A stretch of DNA of 64,000 nt from Acidimicrobiia bacterium (GCA_041577335.1 JBFGJH010000008.1:1-64000), one strand, 5' to 3'. Shown: positions 8,362-37,044, counted from the first letter of the stretch. Numbers and translations are program-made. The notes: generated by a model from the sequence alone, not told the origin.

Positions 8362-9209
8362 TGATCGGTTTGACCCCAGGAGTTCAGCGAAAAGGCCTCA
8401 TCAGAGGCCGAAAGTGGCCGTTCCATATCGGCCTCACCGTCACCGCCCTCGTCATTGCGTTCCCGTTGCTCTACGCCTCCCTCATCGCGACGCAAAGCAA
8501 CCCAGAGATCTTCTCGTTCCAACTCACACCCGGAAGCGCCTTGAGGGAGAATTTCGAGGCCGTATGGGTGAGGCGCGACTTCTCCGGCGCCATGTGGAAC
8601 TCAATGCTCATGTCCATTCTCATCACTACGGGCAAGACGGTGCTTTCTCTGCTCGCCGGGCTGGCGTTCGTCTACTTCAAATTCCGTGGCAAATGGATCG
8701 TCTTCTTCTTCGTGCTGGTGACCCTGATGATGCCGACCGAGGTCATGATCCTGGCGATGTTCCGCATGGTGTCTGGTTTCGGCTGGCAGGACACCATGAC
8801 TGCTCTCGTGGTCCCCTTCTTGGCGTCGGCAACGGGCGCCTTCCTCTTCCGACAGCATTTCGCCAACCTGCCGGGCGATTTGCTCGAAGCGTCTCAGATC
8901 GACGGCGCCTCACCGGTTCAGTTCCTGACCAGGGTCCTCGTCCCTGTTTCGTGGAACGTCATCGCCGCGCTGTTCGTGATTCAGTTCGTCTACTCGTGGA
9001 ACATGTTCCTGTGGCCAAGCCTCATCGTGAGAGATGAGTCGCGGTCGGTGGTGCAGGTGGCTCTTCAGACCCTCACCAACATCGAAGGCGCTACCACGTA
9101 TGGGCCGCTGATGTTGGCAGCCATCATGGCTTCCATCCCCCCTGCGATCGTCTTCGTGCTCATGCAGAAGCCCTTCATGAGCGGATTCGCCGTCGGCCAG
9201 GACAAGTAG
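8361..9209 (+). CDS. ugpE: Carbohydrate ABC permease, UgpE-like
   Basis: TLMMPTEV, ASATGAFLFRQHF, EASQIDGA, WNMFLWP. TGATG coupling to the upstream gene. Confidence 0.8.
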   Translation: MIGLTPGVQRKGLIRGRKWPFHIGLTVTALVIAFPLLYASLIATQSNPEIFSFQLTPGSALRENFEAVWVRRDFSGAMWNSMLMSILITTGKTVLSLLAGLAFVYFKFRGKWIVFFFVLVTLMMPTEVMILAMFRMVSGFGWQDTMTALVVPFLASATGAFLFRQHFANLPGDLLEASQIDGASPVQFLTRVLVPVSWNVIAALFVIQFVYSWNMFLWPSLIVRDESRSVVQVALQTLTNIEGATTYGPLMLAAIMASIPPAIVFVLMQKPFMSGFAVGQDK

Positions 9210-9223
9210 GGGTAGGCCCAGAC

Positions 9224-10558
9224 TCAGAGACTGTCGGCCGTGACCTGGCCACCCACCTGCGAAATCGCCGGAACGGCGGGAGTCACACAGGCATGCTCCG
9301 GAGTCGATCCCACGAAGAAGTCAGCGTCGTCGGCCTCGCGTCGCAGCAAGCTGAGCAGGGGAATTGCGAGGAGGGTGACTGCACCGCCGACGATGTAGCC
9401 CGCTGAGAACCCTCGCCGATCCGAGAGTGCCCCGAGTCCCGACTGACCGACCACACCGCCACCACCCGCGACCATGGAGTCGAACGACACGACCGTCGCT
9501 CGCTGTTCGCTGGGCACGATATGGTGAATGAAGGCCTGGCGAACCGGCATCTGCACTCCCATGGCCACGCCCCCGAGGAAGAGCAAGGCCAGGGCAGGCG
9601 CAAACCCGTCTACGACACCCACGCCGACGAGCGCAGCCGAGAACACGCCTCCGGCACCGATGAAGAGGGTGCTGCGCCGGCCGCACCATCGGGTGACGAT
9701 CTCGACGATCCCATTGCCCACCATCATCGAAATGGCCAAGAGGGCGGCCACGACTCCGGCCACCCATACCGCATCGCGACCGAGCAGCTCCAGGAAATAG
9801 GGCTGCCAGGCGTACCACGCCCACGCAAAGAACCCCGATTGAACAGCGGTTGCCACCATCAGCAGCCGAAGTGATCGATGGCGCCAGCCGAATCGGATGC
9901 CGGCACGACCCACCTGGGCGGCCTCGGTCGGCAGTTGTCGCACGGAGACAGCGCGGGGTTCGAAACCGAGATCGTGCATCCCGACCATGGCCAACCCCAG
10001 GAGCGCTACCAGCAGGGCCGATCGCACCATGAATGGGATTGCGAGGTTGATCTGGCCGAGCGCTCCGCCTCCCACCGTCCCGACGAGCATCGCCACTCCC
10101 CCGACGATGTGTCCACGGCTGAACACCCCGTCGAGCCCTCCTTCATATTCGTGGAACCTCAACCCGTCAACGAGCCATGCCTCCATGGCCCCCGAGTAGA
10201 AGGTGAATCCGAGCCCCATGACGACGGAGACCGCGCAGAACGCGAGGACACCTGCCTCGATTTGGGCCAGACCGACATAGGCCAGCGTGGTTGCCGCCAA
10301 AATGCCCACCGAAAGCAAGAAGGAGACTCGTCGCCCAAGGGTGTCTGCCACGACGCCGGTTGGTATCTCGAAGATCATCATGCCAGCCGAGAATGCCGAG
10401 TTGGCCACAAAGACCTCTCCGATCGACAATCCGGCATCCAGCAAAAAGAGCGTGTTGATGCCCCAGATGATCGAGGCGGCGAGGGTGTAGAGCCCGCCGT
10501 AGAGGTAGTAACGCCTGACGAGCTGCTCGGCCGGCGCCGACATGCTGTGAACTGTCAT
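9224..10558 (-). CDS. MFS transporter
   Basis: FEIPTGVVADTLGRR (motif A), FYSGAMEAW, about 12 hydrophobic segments. Confidence 0.9.
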   Translation of the reverse strand: MTVHSMSAPAEQLVRRYYLYGGLYTLAASIIWGINTLFLLDAGLSIGEVFVANSAFSAGMMIFEIPTGVVADTLGRRVSFLLSVGILAATTLAYVGLAQIEAGVLAFCAVSVVMGLGFTFYSGAMEAWLVDGLRFHEYEGGLDGVFSRGHIVGGVAMLVGTVGGGALGQINLAIPFMVRSALLVALLGLAMVGMHDLGFEPRAVSVRQLPTEAAQVGRAGIRFGWRHRSLRLLMVATAVQSGFFAWAWYAWQPYFLELLGRDAVWVAGVVAALLAISMMVGNGIVEIVTRWCGRRSTLFIGAGGVFSAALVGVGVVDGFAPALALLFLGGVAMGVQMPVRQAFIHHIVPSEQRATVVSFDSMVAGGGGVVGQSGLGALSDRRGFSAGYIVGGAVTLLAIPLLSLLRREADDADFFVGSTPEHACVTPAVPAISQVGGQVTADSL

Positions 10559-10595
10559 GTGCCGACCCTAACCAGCCTGGGAATACTCCCGAGGA

Positions 10596-11414
10596 CTAAC
10601 CCTCGGTGACCTCGATGATCTCGAGAGTCAGTGGATCTACCTTCGCCATTCCCGCCAACCCCGAGATCCTCACCAAGCCATCACTGATGATGAGGCGTTG
10701 CCACAAAGCCAGGTTCGTCGGCTCGTCGATGATCCACGTTGAGGGAATGTGATGGCCGCTCCCCGGGCCGACCGCCGTGTCGATGGTCGACGGGAACACG
10801 CGAACCGCGGCATCGAGTGTGGCCCGATCGATGCGGCACAGCATTGAATCGGGCAGGGCTCCATCGCCTTGGCGAATGCAGTACACGGCGTCGTCGGTCA
10901 GCTCCAACGCCTGGGGGCCAATCGAAGAGAATGGATAGGCCCTGAGGATTCTGCCGCTACCAGGCTCGAGCAGCAAGATCTCCGCGTACTCGGAAATGCA
11001 GATCACATCGAGACCGAAGGTCCCGTTGCTGTTGCCCAGCAAACAGCTACGGATGAGGTTGGGGATCTCTGGCTTGGGGGAAGAGATCATCCACGTTCCT
11101 TCGGGAGTTTCGATGCGACTAACACCAAAATCCTCAGGGATCTGCGCCACTCTGAGATCCACCGGCAGAGCTGCCAGGGCAGGCACGACCCCGTCGCGAG
11201 CAGCATCCTCGGGGGTCTGACTTTCGTCGTCCCTGCTTTGGGGGGTGGTGATGACCAATGGCGGGACGGTGGTCAGGTCCACGGGAAGTGTCGACAAGTC
11301 GATCGTGGCAGGCGCCTGGCTGGTTGTGGGTGCCACGACCGGTGATCGAGCGTCGGCGCCGCAAGCGGCGAGCACCAGGCTCGCAACCAGGCTGAGTACC
11401 AGGAGGGCTGGCAT
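10596..11414 (-). CDS. Hypothetical lipoprotein
   Basis: Lipobox LVLAAC then a Pro/Thr linker and a beta-rich domain with Cys pairs. Start trimmed to ATG 11414 to avoid overlap with ldhA. Confidence 0.6.
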   Translation of the reverse strand: MPALLVLSLVASLVLAACGADARSPVVAPTTSQAPATIDLSTLPVDLTTVPPLVITTPQSRDDESQTPEDAARDGVVPALAALPVDLRVAQIPEDFGVSRIETPEGTWMISSPKPEIPNLIRSCLLGNSNGTFGLDVICISEYAEILLLEPGSGRILRAYPFSSIGPQALELTDDAVYCIRQGDGALPDSMLCRIDRATLDAAVRVFPSTIDTAVGPGSGHHIPSTWIIDEPTNLALWQRLIISDGLVRISGLAGMAKVDPLTLEIIEVTEG

Positions 11415-11490
11415 CTCGAAGAGCTGACGCTCTCGGTGTCTCACACGGTTCCTGTCATTCGGCCACCTCCACGCCCCCGGACACTGCCCG

Positions 11491-12477
11491 TCAAAGCTCA
11501 TTCCCAGTCGTTCGTCCTTCTGCGAAAGCGGTGACGTTGCCAATGGTGGTATCGGCGATGGCGTCCATCGCTTCTTCGGTGAAGAACGCCTGATGACCCG
11601 TGATGAGAACATTCGGGAACGTCAGTAGCCGCGAGAAGACATCGTCCTTGATGACGGTGCCAGACAAGTCCTCGAAGAAAAGGTCTCCCTCCTCCTCGTA
11701 GACGTCGAGGCCGAGGTGGCCGATCTTGCCCGACTTCAGACCTTCGATGACTGCGTGGGTATCGATGAGAGCCCCGCGGCTGGTATTGATGATCATCACG
11801 CCATCTCGCATCATGGCGATAGCGAAGGCGTCGATCATGTGATGCGTATCGGGAGTCAACGGAGCATGGAGCGTGATGACGTCGGATTCTTCCCACACCT
11901 GTCGCAGCGGCAGGTATTCGACGCCGAGGGCAACCGCCTCAGAGTTTTCCCGGACGTCGTAGCCGACCAGGCGGCAGCCAAACCCAGCGAGCAACTTGGC
12001 CACCGAGACACCGATCTGACCGGTTCCGACGATTCCCACCGTCTTGGCGCCGAGGTCGAAACCGAGCAATCCGTCGAGAGCGAAATTCCCCTCACGGACC
12101 CGTGCATAGGCGCGATGGATCTTCCGGTCGAGGGCCAGCATGAGAGCCAGCGTGTGCTCGGCCACCGAGCGAGGCGAGTACGCGGGCACACGCACGACGG
12201 CCAGACCAACCCGCCGAGCCGCGTCGAGATCAACGTGGTTGAACCCGGCGCTGCGGAGCGCGATCAGCTTCACTCCTGCGTCGGCCAGCCGGAGGAGCAC
12301 TGCCGCCCCCACGTCGTCGTTGACGAACGGGCTGACGACCTCGAATCCCTCGGCGAGAGCCGCGGTCGACGGCGTCAGGCGCGCTTCGAAGAACTCGACC
12401 TCGTGCCCGCTCGACGCGGCGGCCGCCCCGAGGAAACGCTCGTCATACGGTTTGGAACTGAACACTGCAATACGCAT
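11491..12477 (-). CDS. ldhA: D-lactate dehydrogenase / D-2-hydroxyacid dehydrogenase
   Basis: [56 protein letters not shown]. Confidence 0.9.
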
Positions 12478-12526
12478 CGCCGTGAGTGTACGGAGCCGAT
12501 TGGGATAACCGATCGCACGTGTTCGG

Positions 12527-13468
12527 TCACACCGACACGTCGAGCTCCTCCGCCTCTATGACGGCGTCGACGACCATTTGCACGACGGTTTGGATCGTCT
12601 CATCTGGGAGATCCATATCGAGTTGGGGCACGCCGTGCGATTCGGCGACCATCGAGATGTAGCGATGGATCCGGCGGACCTCCGGGAAGGCGTCCAGATA
12701 CCTGTGCGGGCGCCGGCTTGGCGACCTCTCCAGACGGGTGAGAAAGTGCGCCCGATGCTGTTCGGGGTCCGGGACCGCCAGGACTGCGTGACACACCACT
12801 GCGTGGCGGCGCCATTCCTCGAGGTCGGCTCCAAAGACGCCGGGCAAAACATGGACACCTTCCACGATGAGGTCGCTGCCTTCGACAATCGCCCGATTGA
12901 CGAGACCACGGACCCCGGATGCCACGACTTCAGCCTGCTGTTGGAAGCCGATGACCACTTCATCGTGGTCTTCGGGTACGGGGGCACGCATCACCCGATA
13001 CGCCTCGAACGAAGACACATGGAGGATGGGGGACAGGGTCTCGGAGACGAGCTGGCGCATCACCTCACGGACGGCGTCGGTCGGCATCACTGCCGTGATT
13101 CGTAGCCGTGATCCGACACCGCCGGCAACGGTCGACTTCCCGGTTCCGGGGCTGCCTCCCAACAGCACGACGATGGGGCGCTGCACACGTCGCGCAGCCA
13201 CCCACTTGGCGTACCGCTCACCCATCGGACCGCCCGCGTGATCGGCGGCACATGCCGTAGCTATCTCGATGAGGTCCTCGACGCCCACCATCGGGGTGGT
13301 GCGTTGGACCAACAGGTCCTCGACCTCTTCCGCGATGAGGTATGCCTGTTCTGGCTCGATCCCGATCACCATCATCGACGACGCCATGGCGTCCCGGGAA
13401 TAGGGCAGACGCGTCGCCTTACGATCCTCCACCAAGATGTATCGGCCGGCCACACCGCCAGGCGTCAT
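12527..13468 (-). CDS. pgk2: 2-phosphoglycerate kinase (ATP-cone-like N-terminus plus P-loop)
   Basis: LPYSR..MASSM N-terminus, [50 protein letters not shown]. Lies next to the cDPG synthetase gene. Confidence 0.85.
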
Positions 13469-13527
13469 CGCAAACCTTCGAGATTGAGTGTCGTAAACAC
13501 TACGCAGCCCAGTAGATTGGTGGGCCT

Positions 13528-14364
13528 ATGGCGGCGCTCACCATCGCCCAGATCTCAGACATCCATTGTGGCTCGCCCTTCTACGACCCAGAGCTCCTCG
13601 ACGCAGCTGTCCACGAGATTCTCGATCTGCAGCCCGAGATAGTGGTCGTGGCAGGGGATCTCACCCAGGAGGGCTATGCACCGGAGTTCGAGATGGCGCG
13701 CGATGCGTTGCGCCCGCTCCAAGAGCAGCTCACGACGCTGATCGTTCCCGGCAACCACGATTCCAAGAACGTCGGCTACGTGCATTTCGAAGATCACTTC
13801 GGCAAGGGCGAAGCCGGGGGAAAGGCCGACCGGAGCCTTCACCTCTCACGCGCCAGCGCACCAAAAGGAGTCACGTTTGTCGGCGCCGATTCGTCAAAGC
13901 CTGACTTGGCGGAGGGCGAGATCGGCCGGGAGCGCTATGCCTGGATACGCGAGAAATTCGACTCGGACGCCGACCTCCGAGTGTTCGTGCTCCATCACCA
14001 CCTCGTCTCCGTCCCGGGCACGGGCCGGGAAAGGAACATCGTGTGGGATGCCGGCGATGTACTGGCTCTCCTCGAGGAATGTCAGGTCGACCTCGTGCTC
14101 GCCGGCCATAAGCACGTGCCACACATCTGGGAGGTGGGTGGCATGCTCATCATCAACAGTGGCACCGTGTCCTCATATCGTCTCCGGGGCTATACGCGCC
14201 CTTCGTACAACGTGGTTCGCGTATCCGACACGGCCATCGATGTGACCTTGATGTACCCCGGCTCAGGACAGCAGGCGGCCGCTCACTACGATCGAGCAAC
14301 CCGCCGCATCGACCGCAATCCCGAGCTGGCCGGTATGTTCTCCAAGGCAGCCTGGAGCTGGTGA
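13528..14364 (+). CDS. Calcineurin-like metallophosphoesterase (CpdA/Icc-like)
   Basis: All five motifs present: DIH (SDIHCG), GD (AGDLT), GNHD, HHH, GHKH. Confidence 0.9.
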   Translation: MAALTIAQISDIHCGSPFYDPELLDAAVHEILDLQPEIVVVAGDLTQEGYAPEFEMARDALRPLQEQLTTLIVPGNHDSKNVGYVHFEDHFGKGEAGGKADRSLHLSRASAPKGVTFVGADSSKPDLAEGEIGRERYAWIREKFDSDADLRVFVLHHHLVSVPGTGRERNIVWDAGDVLALLEECQVDLVLAGHKHVPHIWEVGGMLIINSGTVSSYRLRGYTRPSYNVVRVSDTAIDVTLMYPGSGQQAAAHYDRATRRIDRNPELAGMFSKAAWSW

Positions 14365-14666
14365 TGATCGTCCGGATGTTTCTGTCGGCAGTGTCGGAAA
14401 GTGACCTCGATGAGCTCATCGCTGTCTTTCGAGAGGATGTTGTCCCGGCTTTCACTGCTCACCCGGACTGCCTGAGCATCGAGCTCATTCGTGCCGACAA
14501 ACCCGGAGTGGGCGGCCTCATCGAAGGTGGAGCCCTCATCCGTTGGACTTCGGCGGAGGCAATGGATGCCGCCCTCGCCAGCGAAGAGATCATTGCCAGC
14601 CAGGAACGGATCCGCGGGCTGCTGCGCCGCCAACCGCTGCGGAAGGTCTACGAGATCATCGCCTAG
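14361..14666 (+). CDS. Antibiotic-biosynthesis-monooxygenase-like (dimeric alpha-beta barrel) protein
   Basis: 101 aa, MIVRM...PDCLSIEL...IRWTSAEAM...VYE pattern. Overlaps the stop codon of the upstream gene. Confidence 0.6.
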   Translation: MMIVRMFLSAVSESDLDELIAVFREDVVPAFTAHPDCLSIELIRADKPGVGGLIEGGALIRWTSAEAMDAALASEEIIASQERIRGLLRRQPLRKVYEIIA

Positions 14667-14681
14667 AGGCTGGTCGGGCCG

Positions 14682-15971
14682 TCACCCGCCGTTCATCAGC
14701 GTGGCCATTTCTTCAACCCCACCGGCGACGTCGACCCGGTTGTGGAGAAATCCCACCTCGAGATCGAGACTGCGTGCCCACGGAACCACGATGTCGATCG
14801 CAGCGGCCTTGACCTCTACCAAGACAACATCGACCGCCCCTCTGGCTTCAGCATCGGTGAGATCCCGGCGGAGAGCAGCCCGATCGGACAGCGTGTGGAC
14901 GACCTCCACTGCGTGGGCGCCCATCGTACGCAGCTGGGCGGAGATGTCGTCGGCCGCCCCGAGCGGAGCGGTCGTCGCGGCGAGGACACGCCGACCCGAA
15001 ACCGGCAGCGACGGCTCCGGGACGTATGCGCCAACGAAGACCGGCAGGTCGGGCCGCACACTGCGTATGACCGGCAGCAGCCGGCCGGCCGCGGCGAACA
15101 CGCCCGAGCCTCCCACGACGACGACGGCATCGGCCAACGCCAGGCGATATGGCCCCAGGTAGCCGGCCAGGTATTCGGCGGCGATATCCGGCGAGACCAC
15201 CAGCAGCGACGAGTCAACCGCGCAGGGCGGCAGGGCGGTGCCGCTGCCTTCGAGGATCAGCATGTCGGCGCTCGTGGACCCAGCAACATCCATCCCGGCG
15301 GCGAAGTTGTGCCAGTCGGTCTGTCCGGTGAGACCGGCTCCGCAGCGGAAGGTTCCCACCGTGTCTACGCCGGCGAACACAGCATCTTCGATGTAGTCCG
15401 AGGCAGCATGCAAGCCGGCTTCGGCAAGCGCCAACAGCCCGTCTGGTGTGGGTGTGAACGTGCCGGCGCGTAACAGGACTGGCTCCGCGGGTCCGCCCCT
15501 GCCCATTGTGACAATGCAGGGTCGCCGGCCCTGACTCGCCCAGTATCTGGCCAGCTCGATCGCCACCGCCGTCTTGCCGGTCCGCTTGCCGGTCCCCGTG
15601 ACCTCAGCCGTCGGCAGGGAGGTGAGGGGCGGCCGTGGCGGCGGGCTGAGGCGGTAGCCGGCGCCCTCATACCCGACGCCCGACATCAGTGCGACCGCAA
15701 TCAGTTCGAACCGGCGACGGTTGTCGAGCACCGGCTCGTCGCTGAGGTCGATCACCACGTCACACGGGTGGGCGGCGAGAGCTCGCCGGAGTGCATCGGC
15801 AGCCCCGATCTCCACCGGGATTCCGAGATCCGGCGGCGTCTCAGTCTTCTCCGACCCGCCCAAGAACACGGCGGCTCGGGGCACATCGCCCTGCGCACGG
15901 AGCGACGCCAGAGTTCGTTCCACCACTGCGGGATAGTGCTGACCGTCGACGAGCACAACACACGTTCGCAT
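14682..15971 (-). CDS. cpgS: Cyclic 2,3-diphosphoglycerate synthetase
   Basis: Family motifs over the full length: LVDG(Q)HY, FLGGSEK, DLSDEPV, GTGKRTGKTAV, MGRGGP.EP, HAASD..ED, LEGSG.A.PP, GPYRL.LAD, ATTAP, LS.R..LRRDL, EVKAAAID. Confidence 0.9.
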   Translation of the reverse strand: MRTCVVLVDGQHYPAVVERTLASLRAQGDVPRAAVFLGGSEKTETPPDLGIPVEIGAADALRRALAAHPCDVVIDLSDEPVLDNRRRFELIAVALMSGVGYEGAGYRLSPPPRPPLTSLPTAEVTGTGKRTGKTAVAIELARYWASQGRRPCIVTMGRGGPAEPVLLRAGTFTPTPDGLLALAEAGLHAASDYIEDAVFAGVDTVGTFRCGAGLTGQTDWHNFAAGMDVAGSTSADMLILEGSGTALPPCAVDSSLLVVSPDIAAEYLAGYLGPYRLALADAVVVVGGSGVFAAAGRLLPVIRSVRPDLPVFVGAYVPEPSLPVSGRRVLAATTAPLGAADDISAQLRTMGAHAVEVVHTLSDRAALRRDLTDAEARGAVDVVLVEVKAAAIDIVVPWARSLDLEVGFLHNRVDVAGGVEEMATLMNGG

Positions 15972-16149
15972 GCCGCACGCTACCCCGGAGGGCCCGAGTG
16001 ACGCCCGTTTCCAGCGAGATTCGAGACGGGCTCTCGGCGGACCGGCCAGGCGTGACTCTTAGAGGCAATGGGGCCGTCAAATTCGTCAGGCTCGACCGGT
16101 GGAACCGTTGAATCCGTCATGAACTGTCTTTCGGTGGTGTGATTTGATT

Positions 16150-16965
16150 CTATGGGCGGCCGGCGCCGGGTGGCCCGGCGCCGCGTGCAACGTCCACGAT
16201 CAGGGGAGCGTGGTCGGAGGGCTTCGACTCGCGCACCTTGGTGGGCTTGCGGTACTCACGATCCACTCGGGCCGCCTCGAGGCCATCTGCCAACGGGGTG
16301 CTGAGCAGTGCCAGGTCGATCCGCAGCCCGAAACCCTTGTGGAAGTGACCGGCCCGATAGTCCCACCACGTGAACCCGGGCTCTTTCGGTTCAACGGTTC
16401 GGAATGCGTCTACGTAGCCCGTATCGAGAATTGCCGAGAACCGAGATCGCTCCTCCGGAGTGATGTGCGTAGCGCCATGTATGTCGGCTGGGCTCCACAC
16501 ATCTTGATCGGTCGGACAGACGTTCATGTCTCCGGCAACGAAGGTCGGCCGGCCGGCGAGCTGTTGGGCACGTACTGCCATGGCTTCGAGAAACAGGAGC
16601 TTCTCACGGAAAGTCTCCGTTCCGACTTGACGCCCATTCGGCACGTAGACACTCACGACTTTCATGCCGCCGACGGTTGCTTCGACCCAGCGGGCCTCCT
16701 CTGGATTCGGTTGCCCAGGGAGGCCCATGGCGACATCGGCAATCCCGAGGTCGGCGCGGGCCAGCACTGCGACTCCTGCCCACCTGCCCCCAGAGTTGTC
16801 AGCTGATTCATACCCGGCCGCCTGAAGCTCCAAGTGCGGGAACTTCTCGGGAGCAGCCTTGGTTTCCTGTAGGCACACGACATCGGGCTGATGCTCCTCC
16901 AGCAGCGCCAGCAGTCGGGGCATGCGGGCGTTGAGTGAATTGACGTTGTAGGTGACAAAACGCAT
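16150..16965 (-). CDS. xth: Exodeoxyribonuclease III (AP endonuclease)
   Basis: TYNVNS, LQETK, SVYVPNG, GDMN, FTWWDYR, GLRID, SDHAP. Confidence 0.95.
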   Translation of the reverse strand: MRFVTYNVNSLNARMPRLLALLEEHQPDVVCLQETKAAPEKFPHLELQAAGYESADNSGGRWAGVAVLARADLGIADVAMGLPGQPNPEEARWVEATVGGMKVVSVYVPNGRQVGTETFREKLLFLEAMAVRAQQLAGRPTFVAGDMNVCPTDQDVWSPADIHGATHITPEERSRFSAILDTGYVDAFRTVEPKEPGFTWWDYRAGHFHKGFGLRIDLALLSTPLADGLEAARVDREYRKPTKVRESKPSDHAPLIVDVARGAGPPGAGRP

Positions 16966-17018
16966 GCGCCACTAGTCAAGCTTGGTTGCGAGCTCCGTGC
17001 CGAGGAGCCGGGCTGACG

Positions 17019-20000
17019 CTAGGCGCGTCTCTCGGTCAGGCGTTCGGTCATAACGAGCCCGGCGCCGGCCATTGCGAGGAGGACCGCAATCAGCGCCCAC
17101 CAGAAGACAGCGGTGCCGGTTGTAGGGAGTGCCTGCACGATCAACGTGAAGGTAACGGTTGAACAGGAGGGCGGATCGCCCGCGTCGCATACCTGCACCG
17201 TGAAGGTGAAATTGCCGAGCACGTTGGACGTTCCTGAGAATGAGCCGTCCGGATTCAGCGTGACGCCGGGCGGAAGCGCTCCACCTACCAATGAGAAGGT
17301 GAAGGTGGTCCCATCCGGATCGAACGCCAGGAGGGGCGGAATCGGTTCGCCGACTCCAATCGTGATCGGGTTGGCAGTGACGATCGTTGGCGGGTCGTTT
17401 ATAGGTAGAACGGTGACCGTCACGGACACAATGTCGCACGACTGGCCACCCCCTCCACCTGGCGAGCCGGGGTCAAAGTCACACGCCTCGTATGTGAACG
17501 TGTCTTCGCCCGAGAACTCGGGATCCGGGGTGTACGTGATCGTGCCTTCGACATTGACGACCACCATCCCATTGGCAGGCTGCGTTACGGCTCCGATGAA
17601 GAGTGCTTCGCCGGTCGGGTCGGAATCGTTGGCCAGAACGTTGATCGTCACCGCGGTATCTTCGTTGGTCACAGCGAAATCCGGCGCTCCGAGGGGCGGC
17701 GGGTTTCCGACTTCCACGCTCACGGTGGCACTGCTACAGGCACCGGCGTCATCACAAACCTCGTACACGAATGTGTCGGTTCCAAAGAAACCTTGGTCTG
17801 GCGAATAGGTGACGACACCCGTCATCGCGTCGACGGTGACCGAGCCATTCGACGGACCTGATATCACCATGACCGTCGCCGGATCGAGTGCCGACTCAGG
17901 ATCGATGTCGTTCAGCAAAACGTCGATGTCGACGGGCGTTTCCGGACTCGTGACAGCGGCATCGTTCACCGCAATCGGGAGGCCGTTCGTCGTCACGGAG
18001 ATGGAGGCCTCCGAGCAGGCGCCCTGGTCATCGCACACCTCGTATGTGAACGAATCGGTGCCAATGAACCCGGGATTGGGCGTGTAGGTAATCGTGCCGT
18101 CGGCCTCTATCACGACGGTCCCGTTGCTTGGGGCAACTGGGAATCCAACCACCGTCAGCGGATCGGCTTCCGGGTCACTGTCGTTGGCCAGGACATCGAT
18201 ATTGATGCTGCTGCCTTCGTCGACCGTTCCGGCATCAGGTATCGCCAGGGGAGCGCCGTTCACATCGACGACCACCGAGGCCAATGAGCAAGCACCGAGC
18301 AGGTCGCACACCTCGTAGGTGAATGCATCCGTGCCGAAGAAACCTGGGTCGGGAAGGTAGGTGACGGTGCCATCCGGATTGGCTGTGGCCGTGCCATTGG
18401 CAGGTTGCGTAGTCACGGAGACCGCGGCGAGGTCGAGCCCGTCGGGATCAGAGTCATTTGCCGTCACCGCGATTGTGACCGGCAGACCTTGATTGGTGGC
18501 GGCCGTGTCATCAACTGCAATCGGCGGGCCGTTGACCGTAACCTCGATTGTACCGATCGAACAACCACCGTCGTCATCACAGATCTCGTACGTGAACACA
18601 TCGATTCCGGAGAAACCGGGATCGGGGGTATAGGTGATCTGCCCGGTCACGGGATCAACGGCCACCGCCCCGTTGGCAGGCGGCATCACCACCGAAACAC
18701 TGGTGGGGTCGATCGACCCGTCCGGGTCCGTGGCCGCAGCAACGACATCGATGATGACGGGACTGCCATCACTCGTCACCGCAAGGGTGCCCGGCACCAC
18801 GGGGAGAGCATTGACATCGACCGTGACCGTGGCTGTTGCACAGCCTCCGAGATCGTCGCACACCTCGTACATGAACGAGTCGGTTCCAAAGAAACCTGGG
18901 TCAGGCGCATACGTGATGTCTCCGGTGTTTGGATCCACCGTTACCGTGCCGTCTGAGGGCAGACCGACAATCGTCACCGAGCTGGGCACGAGGAAGCCGT
19001 CGCCATCCGAGTCGTTGGCGAGGACCGGAATCGTCACTGCCACCCCTTCGTCGGTGGCCGCTCCGTCATCCGCGGCGACCGGCGGATCATTGACCGTGAT
19101 GGTCACGGTGGCTGTATCGCACGCCAATGGAGCACCGTCGTCGCAAACCTCGTACGTGTAGGTATCGACTCCTGTGAATCCGCTGGGAGGTGTGTACGTG
19201 ATCGTGTTGTCGCCGTTGATGACGACGGTGGCCCCGGCCGTCACATTGGAGACCGAGTTCACCGTCAGGATGCCGCTCTCAGGATCGAGGTCGTTGTCCA
19301 ACACCGCCGTCGTGACGGAGGCGTCGATCTGGGTGACGTCGCTGTCATCTACGGCGACTGGCGGGTCGTTGAGGACTGGATCGTCAACTCCAACCGTGAC
19401 GGTGGCAATGTCGCATTGCGGCGGGGTGGCGCCGTCGCAGACCTCGTAGGTGAACACGTCCGCTCCTACGAAGCCAGGGTCGGGGCTGTAGGTGATGGCG
19501 CCGGTTACCAGATCGACGGTTGTTGACCCATTGGTTGGCCCCGTTGTCACATTCACAGACGAGGGGTCGAGTGCCCCTTCGGGGTCCGTGTCGTTGGCCA
19601 GCACATCGATTGAGACCGGGATGTCAACGTCGGTCGTGGCGCCGTCATCGACGGCAGTGGGCGGCCCGTCGACCGTCACGGTGACGGTCTCGATGGAACA
19701 GGCACCCAGACTGTCACAGACCTCGTATGTGAACGTGTCGGTGCCGTAGAAGCCCGGATCGGGTGTGTAATCCACCTCTCCGGTACCGCCATTGATAACG
19801 GCCGTGCCAAATGTCGGCGCGGCGGGGATGTCCGTGACCGTCATCGGGTCCAATTCCGGATCGGTGTCGTTGGCCAGCACATCGATCGCCACGAGTGCGC
19901 CCGAGTTCGTCGTTGCCGTGTCGGGCGCGGTCTGCGGCGCTCCGTTGACGTCGATGGTGACAGTCGCCGAGCCGCACGACCCGGCGTCATCGCACACCTC

Positions 20001-23000
20001 ATAGGTGAAGGTGTCGGCACCAAAGAACCCTGGGTCAGGCGCATACGTGATCTCGCCGGTTACTGGATCGACCGAGACCGTGCCGTTGGTGGGCCCCGAG
20101 GTGACTGTGACCGAGGCAGGGTCGAGAACGCCGTCGGCGTCCGAGTCGTTCAAGAGCACATCCACCGTGACGGCTTGCTCCTGGTTGGTGGCGTCCGCGT
20201 CGTCATTCACGATGGGCGGCTCATTGACGAGGACGTCCAGAACGGCTGTATCGCATTCCCCTGCAAGGTCACAGACCTCGTAGGTGATCTGATCGTTCCC
20301 ACTGAATCCGGGATCGGGCGTATAGGTGATCTCGCCGGTCACGGCATCCACCGACACCGTGCCGTCGAAAGGTCCGAACACGACGGACACCGAGGTCGGA
20401 TCGATATTTGATTCGGCGTCCGTGTCGTTGGCGAGCACGTCGACCGTGACAGGAACGTCCACGTCGGTCACTGCCGCGTCATCCACGGCCACAGGCGGCG
20501 TGTTGAAGGCCGACACCGTTACCGTGACGACGGCGCTGTCACAGGCGCCGAGGTCGTCGCACACCTGGTACACAAAGGTGTCGTCACCGATGAAGCCAGG
20601 ATCGGGTGTGTACGTGACTGCACCCGTGACCGGATCGACGGCAACCGTCCCCGTGTTCGGCAGGGCGAGAATCGAGACCGACGTGGGATCGATGTTCCCG
20701 TCGGCGTCGGTGTCGTTGGCCAGCACGTCGATCACTACTGCGGTGTTGGCGAGTGTGCCGGCCGTGTCGTCGACGGCGACCGGGGTGGAATTGATGTCCA
20801 CGGAGACGGTCTCCACCGAGCACGCACCGCCGTCATCACACACCTCGTATGTGAAGACCTCGGTGCCGGTGAATCCGGCATCGGGGGTATACGTCACGGT
20901 GCCATCAGGTTCGATCACCGCTGTGCCGTTGATCGGCGGCGTCGGAAACCCGGTCACGGTGAGCGGGTCGCCTTCCGGATCGGTGTCATTGTCCAACACG
21001 TCGAGGTTGATAGGAGTGGCCTCGTTGGTGAGTCCGCTGTCGGGGGCGGTGACCGGGGCACCGTTGACCGTGACCGTGACCGTGGCCATGGCACAAGCGC
21101 CATCATCGTCGCACACTTCGTAATCGAACGTATCGGTGCCGAAGAAGCCCGGATCGGGCGTGTACGTCGCTTCCCCTGTGGCGGGATCGATGACCACGCT
21201 CCCGTCCGAAGGTCCGTTGGTGATCGTGACCGAACCCGGATCGAGGGTGCCGTCAGAATCGGAATCGTTGACAAGGAGGTCGATCGTCACCGCAGTGTCC
21301 TGGTTGGTCTCGGCCGAGTCGTCGCCAGCCACAGGCGGCAGGTTGACGAGCACCGTGACCGAGTCGCTCGCCGTGACTTGCTGGCCGAGCGAGTCGTCGG
21401 CCGTCACGCTTGCGACGTTGGCGACGTCGTTGGTCCCCGCCACCGTCGAGCAGTCAAAGATCCACGTCTCACCTACCTCCAGCACGCCCAGGGCGCCTCC
21501 GTCACCACTCACCAAGGTGAGCCCCGAGCACGTGTCGTCTGTGACCACGACATTCACGAGCGGGTCGTCACCGACGTTCTCCACCTCGATGGTGTACGTG
21601 ATCGACGTGCCTGGCGTGACCTGGGTGGCGTCGGCGGTCTTACGCAGATCGAGCGCCGGGTCGATCACATCGACCGAGGCCGTGTCGGTTGCTGAGACCA
21701 CTGATTGGCCTAGCTCGTCGAGGGCGGATGCAAACGCCGTGTTGGTGACATCACCCGTGACCGTCACGTCGCACGTGAACCGCCAGATCTCGCCGCCATC
21801 GAATATGGCGTCGCCGTTGCCGGATTGCTCCGAGTCAAACACGGGCGTCGGACATCGGTCATCGATGACAGAAACCGAGAACAGCGGCTCATCTCCCGTG
21901 TTCTCGACGTTGTATCGATAAGAGGCGGTGCCACCCGTGGTCACAACCGGTGTCAGCGTGCTCTTCGAGATACTGAGGCCGGTGATGAGTACATTGACAG
22001 ATTCGGTGTCGGTGTCGGTGACGTTGGCGAGGGTGGGGATATCCGTCCCGCCGGCGTCGACCGGGTTGGCGGTCACCACCGCCACATTGGTTGTGTCTAC
22101 GGTGACGCTGACGGTGATCGCGCACGTCACCGAGTCACCGGGAGCAACCGGCCAACTCCCTGAATCGCAAGCGAGGGTGACGTCGTCACCGGGCACGGCC
22201 GGCGTGCCGGCGTCGTCGACGATGGACACGTTCGATACGTGAACGTCCCCATCGTTCGTGACGACGTAGGTATAAGTGACCGGATCGCCCGGATTCACGG
22301 TGGTCGCATCGGCGGTCTTGTTCATCGACACGCTCGGGTTCACCACATCGACCGTATCGGTTGAGGTGCCAATCAGAAGGGTCTCGTCTGAGGTGACCTC
22401 GGCAGTGTTTGACACCGTTGCGCTCGGGCCGCCGGCCGCGTCGTAGGTGACAGTAACCGTGGCAGTGGCTCCGGCAGCCAGGACGGGAATGGTGCAACTG
22501 ATTGCGTTGGACGGCGGATCACAAGTTCCGCCCATGTCGGCGCCGACGGCTGTCACCGTGAGTGCGGTGTCGACCGCGTCGGTGACCACGACGTTGTCGG
22601 CATCGGATGCGCCACTGTTCCTGACAGCGATTGTGAAGGAGTAGGGCCCTGTGCCGGCCGCGACCGGGTCCTCGATGAAAGCCTTCGTGACAGCCAGGTC
22701 GACGTCCTCACTGATCTCGACCGAGGCGAAAGCGCTGCCGAAATTGCCGTTGGCGTCACCGACATTGGCGACGTTGGGCACAGTGGCCGCGTCCACCGTC
22801 TCGGCCACCGAATAGGTGACGAGCACTGTCACGGTGGCCCCGGCAACGAGCGGATCGAACGTGCAGTCGATGTCCTGACCCGAAGATCCATCCACCCCGC
22901 CGGTGCAGTCGACCGCGGTGACCTGCAGACGCGAGTCCACGGTGTCAGTGATGTTCACCGCTGACGTGTCGGACAGCCCATCGTTGGCGACGGTGATTGT

Positions 23001-26000
23001 GAACTGGTTGCCCACCGACCCCGCCACCGCTGTGGTCGGGCCGAAGGCCTTCGACGCCGAGAGCAAGATCGAACCGAACACATTGACCGACGAGAGGGAC
23101 GTGGCGGTGTTGCCGGCGAAGTCCACGACGTCGAACTGATTCCCGATCGTCGTGGGGGCCACCGATGACGAGATGTCATACGTGATCGTCACCACGGCCG
23201 AGGCGCCGGCAAGGATGGTGCCAAACGTACAAGTGACGTTCTGACCTGCTGTGGAATCCACCCCGCCACCGCAATCAACGGCGGTCACCGAGAGCCGGGC
23301 GTCGACCGAATCCGTGACCACCACCGTATTGGCATCGGAAATTCCGTTGTTTTCGACTGTGAGGGTCATCTGATTTCCCGTGGAACCGGCGGCCGCCGTG
23401 GCCGGTGTGAACTGCTTCACGGCGTCGAGATCGATGACGGTGACGACCTCGACCGAGCTCAGGCCCGAGGCGGCGTTCGCGTCGGCGTCGGTGGCGAGGG
23501 CGGTATTGGGGATCAAGGCGGCATTGACAGTCCCATCGACGTCATAGGTGACGAGGATGGTTGCTGAACCGCCGGGCGCCAGTGAGGCATATGTGCAATC
23601 GATGTCCTGACCGCTCGATGCGTCGACCCCACCTCCACAATCCACACCCGTCACGGTGAGCCGGGCGTCGAACGTGTCGGTGACGTTCACGGACTCGGCA
23701 TCCGAGGTGCCGATGTTCTCGACGAGAATCGAGAATTGGTGCCCGCCGGTTCCTGCGATCACCGAGGCGGGGCTGGGGAGCTTGGTGACAGCCAGCACGA
23801 CATTCTCAGAGATCGTGATCGATCCCGAGGCGGTGGCACTGTTGGCGTCGCCATCGACAACAGCGGCGTTGTTGACGATGGTCGCAGACTCCTCGGATGC
23901 GCCGACATCGTAGGTGACGGTGACCGTGGCACTGGCGCCCGCCGCCAAGACGGCAAACGTGCACGTCACGTCTTGGCCGGCCGACGTATTCACGCCACCG
24001 CCACAATCGACCGCGGCAACGACGAGGCGGGCGTCGACGGCGTCGGTTACCACCACTCCCGTGGCATCGGAGGTCCCGCTGTTCGTCACCGTGAGGGTGA
24101 ACTGATTTCCGGTCGTTCCGCCGTCCACGGCAGACGGCGTGAAGGCCTTGGCGAGTTGCAGCCCCACATCTTCGACGATGTCCATGCTGGCCGTATTGGA
24201 TGAGGTAGCCGCTTGTTCATCGGACGCCACCGTGGCCAGGTTGGAAATCGTTGCGCCGGCCTCAGAGCTGTCCACGGTGAAATCGACGGTGAGCGTCACC
24301 GATGTTCCCGCTCCCAACGAGGAGAACGAACAGTCGACGGCGTTGCCGACGGTGCCATCGGTACCGCCCTGCCCAGCGCAGTCAGTGCCGGTGACGGTGA
24401 GGGCCGGGTCGACGTTATCGACGATGGACACGTTCTCGGCGTCCGACGTCCCGGCGTTGGTGACGACCACGCTGAAGCTCGAGGCGGCTCCGCCGGCGAC
24501 GACGACCGGATCGGTGAAAAGCTTCGCGGCGGTGAGGTCAACGTCTTCGACGACACTGACCCCTGTTGTGTTGGAAGGGGTTGACGCTTGCTCGTCGGAA
24601 GAGACCTGGGCGGTATTTGAGATAGTCGACGTGTCGGTGGACTCGGGAACGTCGTAGGTGACGGTCAGAGTGGCGGTGGACCCGGCGGTCACGAGTGGGA
24701 GCGTGCAGGTGACAGCATTCCCTACCGTCGAGTCCGATCCTCCCAGCGCTGAGCAATCGGTGCCGGTGACGGTGAGGTCTGCGTTCACGGTGTCGGTTAT
24801 CACGACGTTCTCCGCGTCTGAAAGGCCTGCATTCGTAACGGCGACGGTGAAGCTGTTGCCGGAGGAACCGGCAGTCACAGGGTCAACGACGAACGTCTTC
24901 GCCGCCGACAGCTGCACGTCTTCTTGAACGCCAACGGTGGCAGTGTTGGAGTTGGTGGCTCCTTGCTCATCGGAAGAGACCTGAGCCGTGTTGGAGATCG
25001 TGCCGGGGCCGGCCGAGGCGAGGACATCGAACGTCACTGTGAGCGTGGCCGTCCCGCCTCCCACAACGTTCGGCAATGCACACGACACGTTGTTGCCAAT
25101 CGTGTTGTCAGTCCCTCCCAGGGCAGCACAGTTGGTGCCGGTCACGGTGAACGCCGGGTCAACCGTGTCGACGACCAGAACGTTGTCGGCGTCCGAGACG
25201 CCCGAGTTCAGGACGGCGACCGTAAATGTGTTGCCAGTCGATCCGGCGTCGATCGGGTCGGCGGTGAAGCTCTTGGTGGCCACCAAGGTCACCCCTTCTA
25301 CGACGTTGACAGAGGCAGTGTTCGAGTCGGTGGTTGCCTGCTCGTCTGATGACACCTGCGCCACGTTCGAGACGGTTTGTGTGTCTACGGTCGTCGCAAC
25401 CGTGAACGTGACTTGGAGGGTGAAACTTCCGCCCGGCGCCACCGTCAGGCCAGAGCAGTCAACCGAGTTGCCCACTGTGTTTTCGGTACCACCTTGGGCA
25501 CCACAATCGGTGCCGGTGACGGTGAGGGAAGCGTCAACGGCATCGACGATCGCAACGTTGTCGGCAGTCGTGGTTCCGCTGTTGGCGACGACGAGATCGA
25601 AGGTATGCGAGGTGCCGGCACCGGCCGTCACCGAAGCGTCGGCAAACGTCTTGGTGATGTCCAATACGACATTCTCCGTTACGTCGACCGTGTCGGACGC
25701 AGAAACCGGCCCGGCCTCGTCGGACTGGACGGTGGCGGAGTTCGAGATCGTGCCGACTGGGGTTGAGGCCGGTACGTCGTACGTCACAACGATTGAGGCG
25801 GCCGCCCCGCCCGCCAGGGTGAGGAAAGTACAGTCGACCGTGTTGCCCGTCGTGTTGTTGGTTCCGCCGTCGCAGTCAACCGACACCACCGTCAAGGCCG
25901 GGTCCACAGTGTCGGTCACGCTCACGTTGTCCGCGTCGCTGACGCCTCCGTTGGCGATGTCGATCGAGAAGGTGTAGGACCCGGTGCCTGCCGGAACATC

Positions 26001-27740: not shown

Positions 27741-27987
27741 GCCGGACGACCATGCGGCTCGGCCCTGGATCCCACTTCGAAACACCCCATGGGGGTTGGC
27801 GATTCGCGGAGTATATGCAGCGTGATGCCCGGCTCAAAGGATGCGCGGCGGCCTCGACCTGGATCCGGGCTCAGGCGTGAAGACGGGCCACCGCGCTTCA
27901 TCGGACGCGTCGAACCAAAGCCCTAGGACCTCGCTAGCCCGGCATGCCCAAAGGGATCCGATCGGGGCGCGCGCGGAGCCGGCTGGA

Positions 27988-36214: not shown

Positions 36215-37044
36215 CCGGGCGGCTCCAGCATCTCACGAAGTGCGTCGAGATCGAGGTCTGGCTGCGGATAGGCGAGGTTGAGCGAGCGAAGCTGCTCCAC
36301 GAGCAGCGTGGCGATCGCCCAATTTCGGTACCACTTGTTGTCGGCGGGCACCACATACCAGGGCGCGATGTCCCAATTGGTCCGCGTGACCATCTCGCCG
36401 TACGCGTTTTGGAATTCGTCCCACATGCGCCGGGTCTCGATATCGGATTCGGCAAACTTCCATCGCTTGTCCGGGCGCCGCAGGCGGCGCAGGAAGCGTC
36501 GGCGTTGCTCGTCGTAGGAGATATTGAGCAGGCATTTGACAATCACGGTGCCGCTCTCGACGAGGCCTTCTTCGAACGCCATGATCTCCTTGGCCATGCG
36601 ATCGATTTCGCCCGCGTCCGCCGAATGATGGGCCAACGGAATGAGCAAGTCCTCGTAATGAGACCGGTCGAAGACCGCCAGGGAACCCGGTGCCGGGGCC
36701 GCCTTGCGGATCCTCCACAAGAAGTCATGCTCCTGTTCTTCTTCGGTCGGCTCCGTGAATGAACTCACCGAGAGACCGGCAGGATTCACGGCACTCACGA
36801 CGTGCTTGATGGTCCCGTTCTTTCCGGAAGCGTCGGTGCCTTGCAGCACGAGGAGAACGCTTCGCTCTTGTCCTGCCATCATCAGCTCGTGCAGATCAAA
36901 GAGCTCCTCCCTGAGCTCAGTGAGCGCCCGTTGGGCGTCCGATTTCGAAGAGACGCCCGGAGTGGCGCCGGCGTCGTACCCGGCCAGCGTGAACGATCCT
37001 TCGATCGGCGTGGCCTGAAGCTCGACATTGAGGCCTGTCTTCAT
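36211..37044 (-). CDS. ppk2: Polyphosphate kinase 2 family
   Basis: LQGTDASGK, PTEEEQEHDFLWR, FDRSHYED, KRWKF, APWYVVPADNKWYRN. Confidence 0.9.
   Translation of the reverse strand: MKTGLNVELQATPIEGSFTLAGYDAGATPGVSSKSDAQRALTELREELFDLHELMMAGQERSVLLVLQGTDASGKNGTIKHVVSAVNPAGLSVSSFTEPTEEEQEHDFLWRIRKAAPAPGSLAVFDRSHYEDLLIPLAHHSADAGEIDRMAKEIMAFEEGLVESGTVIVKCLLNISYDEQRRRFLRRLRRPDKRWKFAESDIETRRMWDEFQNAYGEMVTRTNWDIAPWYVVPADNKWYRNWAIATLLVEQLRSLNLAYPQPDLDLDALREMLEPPG

Follow-up and report, generated by a model that had tools for sequence, protein, structure and literature searches.

Cyclic 2,3-diphosphoglycerate (cDPG) is under development as a commercial extremolyte. The primary report of an activity that hydrolyses it, cDPG hydrolase, is said to be that of Sastry et al. 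from 1992, and we know of no gene for this archaeal activity; none was named for the methanogen enzyme in the main texts, as distinct from the supplements, of the literature examined. According to Roberts (2005; PMC1224877), the hydrolase of Methanothermobacter thermautotrophicus is membrane-bound and is inhibited by K+ and inorganic phosphate (Pi). The structural study of the cDPG synthetase (cDPGS) of Methanothermus fervidus (De Rose et al., 2023; PMC10690619) describes cDPG as exclusive to hyperthermophilic methanogens, at 0.3-1.1 M, and defines the following features of the enzyme: (i) E45 and K46 are contributed by the partner subunit, (ii) K145, R146, K149 and T150 lie in the P-loop, with K145 and R146 contacting the substrate, (iii) D208 is a Mg ligand, and (iv) E305, P335, T353, E404 and K406 contact ATP. 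In a further paper, cDPGS is treated as a marker of thermophily in ammonia-oxidising archaea (PMC7554672), and the term-matched passages of 10.1101/2025.02.21.639460 make no mention of bacterial homologues. Here we describe a locus at positions 12527-15971 of a 64,000-nt stretch of DNA (the window) from a contig of a metagenome-assembled genome (MAG) of an Acidimicrobiia bacterium. By a slight preference over all other readings taken together, we interpret it as a set of four genes through which an uncultured and probably mesophilic host would make cDPG and turn it over.

The original prediction, made from the DNA alone, had placed a 2-phosphoglycerate kinase (2PGK) and a full-length cDPGS 1.2 kb apart in an apparently actinobacterial genome. 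Both open reading frames (ORFs), 12527-13468 and 14682-15971, were found as predicted on the minus strand with 1213 bases between them (13469-14681), and the nearest named homologues belong to Acidimicrobiia MAGs, which agrees with the host proposed. The spacing is filled by two plus-strand genes encoding a calcineurin-like metallophosphoesterase (MPE) and a protein of the ABM fold, so that the gene order reads 2PGK <- / -> MPE -> ABM / <- cDPGS, and the four-gene locus is not one operon. The features are as follows:

12527-13468, minus strand: 2PGK homologue (P0002), 313 aa; best NCBIfam match NF003259
13469-13527, no strand: 59-bp spacer separating the divergently oriented start codons of 2PGK and MPE
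13528-14364, plus strand: calcineurin-like metallophosphoesterase, MPE (P0122), 278 aa; PF00149
14361-14666, plus strand: ABM-fold protein (P0123), 101 aa; PF03992
14682-15971, minus strand: cDPGS homologue (P0001), 429 aa; matches the solved cDPGS

The region of the ABM start codon overlaps the MPE stop by 4 bp.

A search of the PDB with the 14682-15971 product returned 9sxb_A with an expectation (E) value of 2e-69 and 8oru and 8ork with E 5.4e-69, the alignment covering residues 3-412 of 429. Only three distinct PDB sequences were matched, all titled 'Cyclic 2,3-diphosphoglycerate synthetase', and the full-length identity claimed for this ORF was thereby upheld. Counterparts of the M. fervidus ligand residues were located from the PDB alignments together with an alignment of 55 sequences; they are E41/K42, K129/R130/K133/T134, D192, P318, T334 and E386/K388, and the counterpart of E305 could not be mapped because it falls in a variable stretch. 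The P-loop reads G126-T-G-K129-R130-T-G-K133-T134, within which K129, R130, G132, K133 and T134 were invariant in the 55 sequences and in 19/19 rows of the window's own clade. Throughout that 19-row clade, E41, K42, K129, R130, K133, T134, D192, T334, E386 and K388 were kept in all covering rows. P318 is present in the window protein, and L, V or M replaces it in 15 of the 19 rows.

The 12527-13468 product scored 249.1 bits (E 6.5e-74) against NF003259 (2-phosphoglycerate kinase; PRK04220), below the equivalog cut-off of 343, with residues 14-308 of 313 aligned to model positions 8-297 of 306. A second 2PGK model, NF008994, gave 234.6 bits against a cut-off of 603, and NF008996 (mevalonate-3-phosphate 5-kinase) also matched, at 74 bits. 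Besides its N-terminal domain the protein has a kinase domain of the P-loop type, whose Walker A sequence is G105-S-P-G-T-G-K111-S112; searching the PDB with the protein sequence returned nothing meaningful (best E 0.46). The 2PGK identity was thus sustained by the best-matching family over nearly the full length, and because the score lies under the equivalog cut-off we file the protein as a homologue and not as an equivalog. The expectation that family models would recognise both enzymes held in part: the 2PGK model matched at this sub-equivalog level, and the cDPGS homologue had no match in the copies of Pfam-A and NCBIfam that were searched. The PF27272 model itself was absent from the output of that Pfam scan, and the precomputed label of the protein in a protein collection is PF27272.1.

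A pattern scan with one genome per species yielded at least 578 stretches encoding a cDPGS relative, and the best 80 of these loci were examined. Most come from Actinomycetota MAGs, with Acidimicrobiia, Thermoleophilia, Gaiellaceae, Euzebyaceae, Aquicultor and Anoxymicrobiaceae represented, and nine are archaeal. The cDPGS and 2PGK genes were adjacent and co-directional, in the order cDPGS -> 2PGK, in 77 of the best 80 loci, with two of the three misses at contig ends; given this adjacency, the pairing is far beyond chance. In 31 of the best 80 loci cDPGS was immediately preceded by an MPE gene of the same orientation; an MPE of about 500 aa followed 2PGK in four Thermoplasmatota loci (apparently with two MPE domains, seen as two separate matches), and in five, all of the window's own clade, the MPE-ABM pair stood beside cDPGS/2PGK. 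When five actinobacterial genomes with no locus-adjacent MPE were tested, all five carried one elsewhere (56-64% identity). Many Actinomycetota have an MPE-cDPGS-2PGK operon flanked by lysA-hom-thrC-thrB on one side and by rho...prfA-prmC on the other (among the best 80 loci, for example, L033, L043, L028, L096 and L037). A TAL/FSA-family gene (226 aa) often follows the operon, and residence within such a housekeeping block argues for an old, vertical presence in the phylum.

The association of MPE with cDPGS was evaluated in two genome samples. Among 201 genomes drawn evenly across the phylum, with an MPE threshold of E <= 1e-25, cDPGS was present in 120/201 and MPE in 119/201; 118 genomes had both, two had cDPGS alone (G068 and G241), one had MPE alone (G165) and 80 had neither. 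Of the 118 that have both, eight are flagged as unpublished (G051, G067, G096, G130, G136, G167, G194 and G220), and when they are left out 110 of 193 have both. The presence and absence of the two genes switch together between genera of one family as well as between families. At the level of the order (41 genomes; MPE threshold E <= 1e-20), cDPGS was found in 18 genomes and MPE in exactly the same 18, a match that holds where the genes are on different contigs (G023, G025, G034 and G036). The 2PGK gene occurred in all 18 cDPGS genomes and, as a weak partial match only, in one further genome. Two genomes, G025 and G036, are flagged as unpublished, and the match becomes 16/16 among 39 genomes without them. 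The notion that MPE and ABM are mere passengers was rejected in view of this near-perfect co-occurrence with cDPGS and of the degree to which MPE is conserved (see below).

Some of the gene matches carry in-frame stops, namely an MPE with three TGA and one TAG (G079:C11:83551-84339), a cDPGS with one TGA (G184:C1:1448154-1449128) and eight Methanobacteriales MPE copies with one or two each; they may reflect the decay of paralogues, reading beyond the end of a gene or faults of assembly.

The distribution bears on two further claims. The pathway had been presented as an archaeal-type oddity in a bacterium, a description that does not hold for genes of which one, cDPGS, is found in 120/201 genomes of the phylum and many of whose bacterial homologues public databases already auto-annotate as '2,3-diphosphoglycerate synthetase'. 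The survey of synteny across the phylum which had been suggested came out in favour of the pairing, as the adjacency figures for the mostly actinobacterial best 80 loci attest. A cDPGS homologue of 451 aa, sharing 42% identity with the window protein, occurs in cultured Streptomyces (sp. WAC 01529, S. anatolicus and sp. NRRL S-920), and in some records it bears this annotation. As to the phylogenetic comparison with archaea, a tree of 93 cDPGS rows, built with a quick method, displayed deep actinobacterial clades that follow taxonomy, the window's order forming a separate clade of 19 rows (support 100). The nine archaeal rows can be accommodated in one clade (support 78) with Aquicultor, Subteraquimicrobiales and Thermoleophilia rows as neighbours; the tree being unrooted and archaea under-sampled, no direction of transfer is drawn from it.

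Two smaller features of the tree may be recorded here. The haloarchaeal cDPGS (L070, L094 and L097; Natrialbaceae, Natronorubrum) nest within Thermoplasmatota rows; these archaea are not thermophiles, and at E 1e-10 their genomes show the two synthesis genes and no MPE. A record labelled uncultured Burkholderiales (L039) is sister to an Actinomycetota MAG (support 99), and may be a mis-binned contig or a rare transfer outside the phylum.

To compare gene content among close relatives, 12 relatives' loci around cDPGS were inspected. All four genes occurred together in 10 of the 12, so the four-gene layout noted in the original prediction is real; in eight of these ten the genes are interleaved as in the window, and in the other two 2PGK -> cDPGS is followed by a convergent ABM <- MPE. 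Identity was 73-76% for MPE, 54-59% for cDPGS and 43-60% for 2PGK, which makes MPE the most conserved member. Ratios of nonsynonymous to synonymous substitution rates (dN/dS), estimated by the Nei-Gojobori method for pairs with dS below about 1.5, were 0.07-0.15 for cDPGS, 0.03-0.07 for 2PGK, 0.016-0.046 for MPE and 0.04-0.085 for ABM. By these values all four are working protein-coding genes under purifying selection.

The MPE matched PF00149 with 70.2 bits (cut-off 21.5), and all of the metal-binding motif blocks are present, namely D11-x-H13, G43-D44, G75-N-H-D78, H156-H-H158 and G193-H-x-H196. The metal-binding residues of these motifs were identical in all 70 relatives compared. Beyond the generic motifs, the 70 proteins share a G166-R-E-R169 loop after the HHH block, D174-A-G-D177, and R218/R220, and the conserved arginines would suit a polyanionic substrate. 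The CpdA equivalog model NF008359 gave 25.9 bits, far from its cut-off of 225. When the family profile was used to search for solved relatives, the nearest were 2zo9/2dxl/3d03 (E 1.1e-11), followed by Rv0805/Icc (about 4e-8); 2ZO9, 2DXL and 3D03, the PDB entries of which are titled 'Phosphohydrolase', we take to be the GpdQ-type glycerophosphodiesterase. In a tree of the 70 sequences made with a quick method, the window MPE fell in one clade of 25 rows with a support of 97 in the SH-like approximate likelihood-ratio test (SH-aLRT). The C-terminal tail NP[ED]LAGMF[SN][KR]..W, or a close variant of it, was present in 25/25 rows of this subclade and in 0/45 of the others. On the strength of linkage and co-occurrence, the MPE, accompanied here by an ABM partner, is best read as a third functional member of the pathway, most likely the breakdown enzyme.

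The 101-aa partner matched PF03992 with 25.5 bits, just over the cut-off of 23.1. PDB sequence searches found nothing with the single sequence and only YgiN (E 0.076) with a profile. Its AlphaFold model had a predicted local distance difference test (pLDDT) score of 95.7, and Foldseek returned 163 PDB matches at E <= 0.001, with ABM-fold entries leading; the top matches were Rv0793, LsrG, SnoaB and IsdG (E 3e-7 to 3e-5, template modelling (TM) scores 0.65-0.81). The ABM fold includes oxygen-independent isomerases of phosphorylated sugars such as LsrG, and for that reason the fold does not predict the chemistry. An ABM gene follows MPE in 19/19 loci of the window's MPE subclade and in 0/10 loci of the other MPE types, and by this measure ABM is a conserved downstream partner of the subclade. 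None of the top listed structural matches is described as a partner of an MPE, and no ABM-MPE pairing is known to us.

The mechanism that we propose has four steps. By homology, the 2PGK would use ATP to convert 2-phosphoglycerate into 2,3-diphosphoglycerate (2,3-DPG). The cDPGS, by homology and by its conserved ligand residues, would spend a second ATP to close the pyrophosphate ring and release cDPG, ADP and Pi; that the pair makes cDPG is, in our estimate, a sound expectation. Linkage and co-occurrence are what point to the third step, in which the MPE would open the cyclic pyrophosphate or dephosphorylate 2,3-DPG, returning carbon and phosphate to glycolysis as a counterpart of the Methanothermobacter cDPG hydrolase activity. 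We give even odds to cDPG or 2,3-DPG being a substrate of the MPE. The fourth step is speculative: ABM, being translationally coupled, may serve as an accessory or regulatory subunit of the MPE in this clade and may dock on the clade-specific C-terminal tail, and binding of the MPE by ABM is conceivable although we rather doubt it. With 2PGK divergent from MPE-ABM, and cDPGS on a separate transcript, synthesis and breakdown would be separately regulable.

Signals that might serve such regulation were searched for around the module. A -10-like hexamer, TAGATT, lies at 13513-13518, with 9 nt between its end and the MPE ATG; the counterpart in relatives is TAGTAT (TAGCAT in L009), ending 9-11 nt 5' of the annotated start codon. 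A two-hexamer promoter scan of 9000-17200 returned 0 promoter-like sites, so TAGATT is only a putative promoter element. The terminator scan over the same interval gave three terminator-like sites against 3.7 expected, and Rfam at the gathering threshold had 0 matches in the entire window. PADLOC assigned a superfamily match of 22.5 bits to the MPE and nothing to 2PGK, ABM or cDPGS, leaving the module with no link to a defence system.

Estimates of lifestyle were drawn from the genome as a whole. Its 2089 ORFs of at least 200 aa have an IVYWREL fraction of 0.397, which by the relation of Zeldovich and colleagues reportedly corresponds to about 37 C, along with an (E+K)/(Q+H) ratio of 1.46 and a median isoelectric point of 5.4. 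At least half of the words sampled from the locus occur in each of five DNA runs, which belong to two studies with the labels marine and soil metagenome; the runs with fewer of the words are mostly sediment metagenomes, and no RNA run is among those listed. Together these data suggest that the host is a mesophile of marine or sediment habitats. The thermoprotectant role that the original prediction had offered is therefore unlikely, and in a mesophile of this kind cDPG would more readily serve as an anionic osmolyte and/or as a reserve of phosphate, carbon and energy. Regarding other solutes and phosphate stores, the genome carries a gene of the OtsA family (trehalose-6-phosphate synthase) and four PPK2-family genes, one at window positions 36286-36948 on the minus strand and the others on contigs C2, C11 and C22; PPK1 had no match in the genome at 90.75% completeness, and a search for the ectoine synthase family also found no match, but the control genomes were silent too.

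The genes flanking the module are the following:

9224-10558: MFS transporter, flank of the module
10596-11612, minus strand: putative lipoprotein, 338 aa, with no family match
11491-12477, minus strand: D-isomer 2-hydroxyacid dehydrogenase, 49 bp beyond the end of 2PGK and co-oriented with it
16150-16965: exonuclease III, flank of the module
17019-27785, minus strand: adhesin-like ORF, 3588 aa, in which domains of the Big_9 (15 stretches), cadherin-like and DUF11 types are repeated

These five were considered as possible members of the module and rejected, none of them standing beside it in the 12 relatives' loci. The best NCBIfam matches of the dehydrogenase were VanH-like D-lactate dehydrogenase and PGDH, all under their cut-offs, and because it is missing from 12/12 relatives' loci it is probably a local co-transcribed neighbour. 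Within the 338-aa ORF, an internal Met precedes a hydrophobic stretch that leads to A-A-C-G in the manner of a lipoprotein signal peptide; translation therefore probably begins further downstream than annotated, in which case the ORF would no longer overlap the dehydrogenase. The 3588-aa ORF looks like a giant surface adhesin.

A number of observations weigh against the proposed module, and they concern its setting, its phyletic basis and its enzymes. Literature searches on a bacterial cDPG pathway or a named hydrolase gene, supplements aside, turned up archaeal and review papers only and no characterised bacterial pathway, as the original prediction had remarked of bacterial clusters. Synthetase and hydrolase side by side imply a futile cycle unless they are regulated. 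The co-occurrence counts do not amount to a statistical test, since the sampled genomes are related and not independent. G068 and G241, which have cDPGS, yielded no MPE even at E 1e-3; G165 has the MPE and lacks the synthesis pair; and in 3/3 haloarchaeal genomes with cDPGS and 2PGK no MPE was detected at E 1e-10. Of 61 genomes of Methanobacteriales, the order for which cDPG is actually documented, 51 have cDPGS and MPE together, four have cDPGS alone, four MPE alone and two neither; the genes are not adjacent there, and as they are near-universal no association can be read. Public sources name the MPE in generic terms only, as CpdA, Icc or metallophosphoesterase, and the methanogen hydrolase is described as membrane-bound whereas the window MPE, its sequence read by eye, has no obvious hydrophobic segment. 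As for the synthesis pair, the 2PGK score falls short of its equivalog cut-off, and a long stem of 0.77 changes per column leads to the cDPGS clade of the window's order. At several positions this clade departs from what at least 90% of the remaining 74 cDPGS sequences have, the substitutions of the window protein at such positions including E11Q, D105G, F106Y, R208F, G212A and T286V, and cDPGS specificity in this clade may accordingly be altered.

The alternative that survives best, though we think it unlikely, is that the pair makes cDPG and the MPE is a cyclic-nucleotide or general phosphodiesterase, or some other phosphatase, tied to the pair by shared regulation or by an unforeseen step. 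It draws on the phosphodiesterase nature of the nearest solved relatives (2zo9/2dxl/3d03 and Rv0805/Icc), on the CpdA or Icc annotation of family members, and on the exceptions in both directions, that is, the haloarchaea and the two actinobacterial genomes with a synthesis pair and no MPE, and G165 with the reverse. These few exceptions stand beside a phyletic match of 118 genomes with both, three with one alone and 80 with neither, and beside the 18/18 of the order sample; in 40 of the best 80 loci, in bacteria and Thermoplasmatota alike, the MPE adjoins the pair or shares its operon. The annotation argument is countered by the CpdA equivalog score, and the kinship argument by the family's own conserved Arg-rich signature, which is not seen in GpdQ where the two align.

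A second alternative, which we rate as quite improbable, shares the synthesis and breakdown steps and would make cDPG or 2,3-DPG a low-abundance regulatory metabolite, the synthetase acting as 'writer' and the MPE, resembling class III phosphodiesterases, as 'eraser'. Pairing of a synthetase with a protein of a phosphodiesterase family is usual in second-messenger systems; the apparent mesophily means that a molar thermoprotectant is not expected, the OtsA-family gene could provide trehalose as a compatible solute, and the operon lies within a housekeeping block between thrB and rho in many Actinomycetota. No gene for a receptor or an effector is recurrent beside the module, where the only recurrent neighbours are housekeeping genes and the TAL/FSA gene. 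Where cDPG has been measured it is a bulk solute at 0.3-1.1 M (PMC10690619), and the cost of two ATP for each molecule is as compatible with a store as with a signal.

There is also a slim chance that the enzymes of this divergent clade use a different substrate, for example a related hydroxy-acid phosphate, and that the product is not cDPG. The long cDPGS stem with its substitutions at otherwise conserved positions would be explained in this way, as would a 2PGK homologue that is under the equivalog cut-off in a family including other kinases (NF008996, 74 bits), and a D-2-hydroxyacid dehydrogenase 49 bp downstream of 2PGK could be read in the same sense. That dehydrogenase, however, is missing from 12/12 relatives' loci, purifying selection on the genes is strong, and the mappable contacts to 2,3-DPG, Mg2+ and ATP are kept in the covering rows of the 19-row clade, P318 apart. 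Last and strongly disfavoured, to the point of hardly being credible, is an inactive relic of archaeal transfer or an assembly or binning artefact: the MAG consists of 128 contigs with 2% estimated contamination and cDPG is reported from archaea only (PMC10690619), but the reading frames are intact, GC is uniform at 0.61-0.66 (~63%) along the whole window, dN/dS is well below 1, the module occurs in 18/41 order-level relatives and cDPGS in 120/201 phylum genomes, and the tree shows deep actinobacterial clades following taxonomy with no recent import.

We therefore return to the module for synthesis and turnover of cDPG as the reading to carry forward. If the genes work as their sequences suggest, much of an abundant bacterial phylum would make cDPG, mesophilic lineages of marine habitats and of soil among them, and the assumed role of the compound as a heat protectant would need rethinking. 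The linked MPE offers a concrete candidate for the cDPG hydrolase, one that is cheap to test, and homologues in cultured Streptomyces make genetics possible. A wider proposal, to which we commit ourselves only tentatively, holds that cDPG, far from being a speciality of archaea for protection from heat, may be a common metabolite of mesophilic Actinomycetota, synthesised by 2PGK with cDPGS and degraded by a dedicated MPE family that would be the cDPG hydrolase left without a named gene in the literature examined, with a tail-docked ABM protein in one large subclade, and that it may act as a regulated cyclic-pyrophosphate buffer of phosphate, carbon and energy or as a signal.

Comparison with known systems places the two plus-strand products at the level of fold or superfamily. 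The ABM protein shares its ferredoxin-type fold with Rv0793 (1Y0H), LsrG (3QMQ, 2GFF), SnoaB (3KG0), IsdG (1XBW) and YgiN (1TUV), and at 7-20% identity the likeness established is one of fold. The GpdQ type and the class III cyclic-nucleotide phosphodiesterases Rv0805/Icc (2HY1, 3IB7) have the same binuclear fold as the window MPE, with all metal-binding motifs in common, and this likeness is at the superfamily level only. GpdQ has unrelated residues where it is aligned to the G-R-E-R and Arg-rich signature of the cDPGS-linked family, and the C-terminal tail of the ABM-linked subclade is an addition relative to both GpdQ and Rv0805/Icc. With respect to reaction, the M. thermautotrophicus hydrolase, converting cDPG into 2,3-DPG, performs the step proposed for the window MPE; MPE homologues were found in 55 of 61 sampled Methanobacteriales genomes, but without physical linkage to cDPGS.

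The closest described relative is the M. fervidus cDPGS (8ORK, apo form; 8ORU, with ADP/Mg/2,3-DPG; De Rose et al., 2023; PMC10690619), a protein of the same family that aligns with the window homologue from end to end at about 35-40% identity; as in the window, its partner in cDPG synthesis is a 2PGK. Both have the GTGKRxGKT P-loop, the Mg-ligand Asp, the E/K pair acting across subunits and the E-x-K contacts to ATP. The window protein is shorter, at 429 aa compared with 459-460 aa, and carries clade-specific substitutions. Unlike in the M. fervidus system, the window genes are interleaved with an MPE-ABM pair, and their function is predicted from sequence. The hosts differ as well, M. fervidus being a hyperthermophilic methanogen and the source of the window an apparently mesophilic bacterium of marine or sediment habitats.

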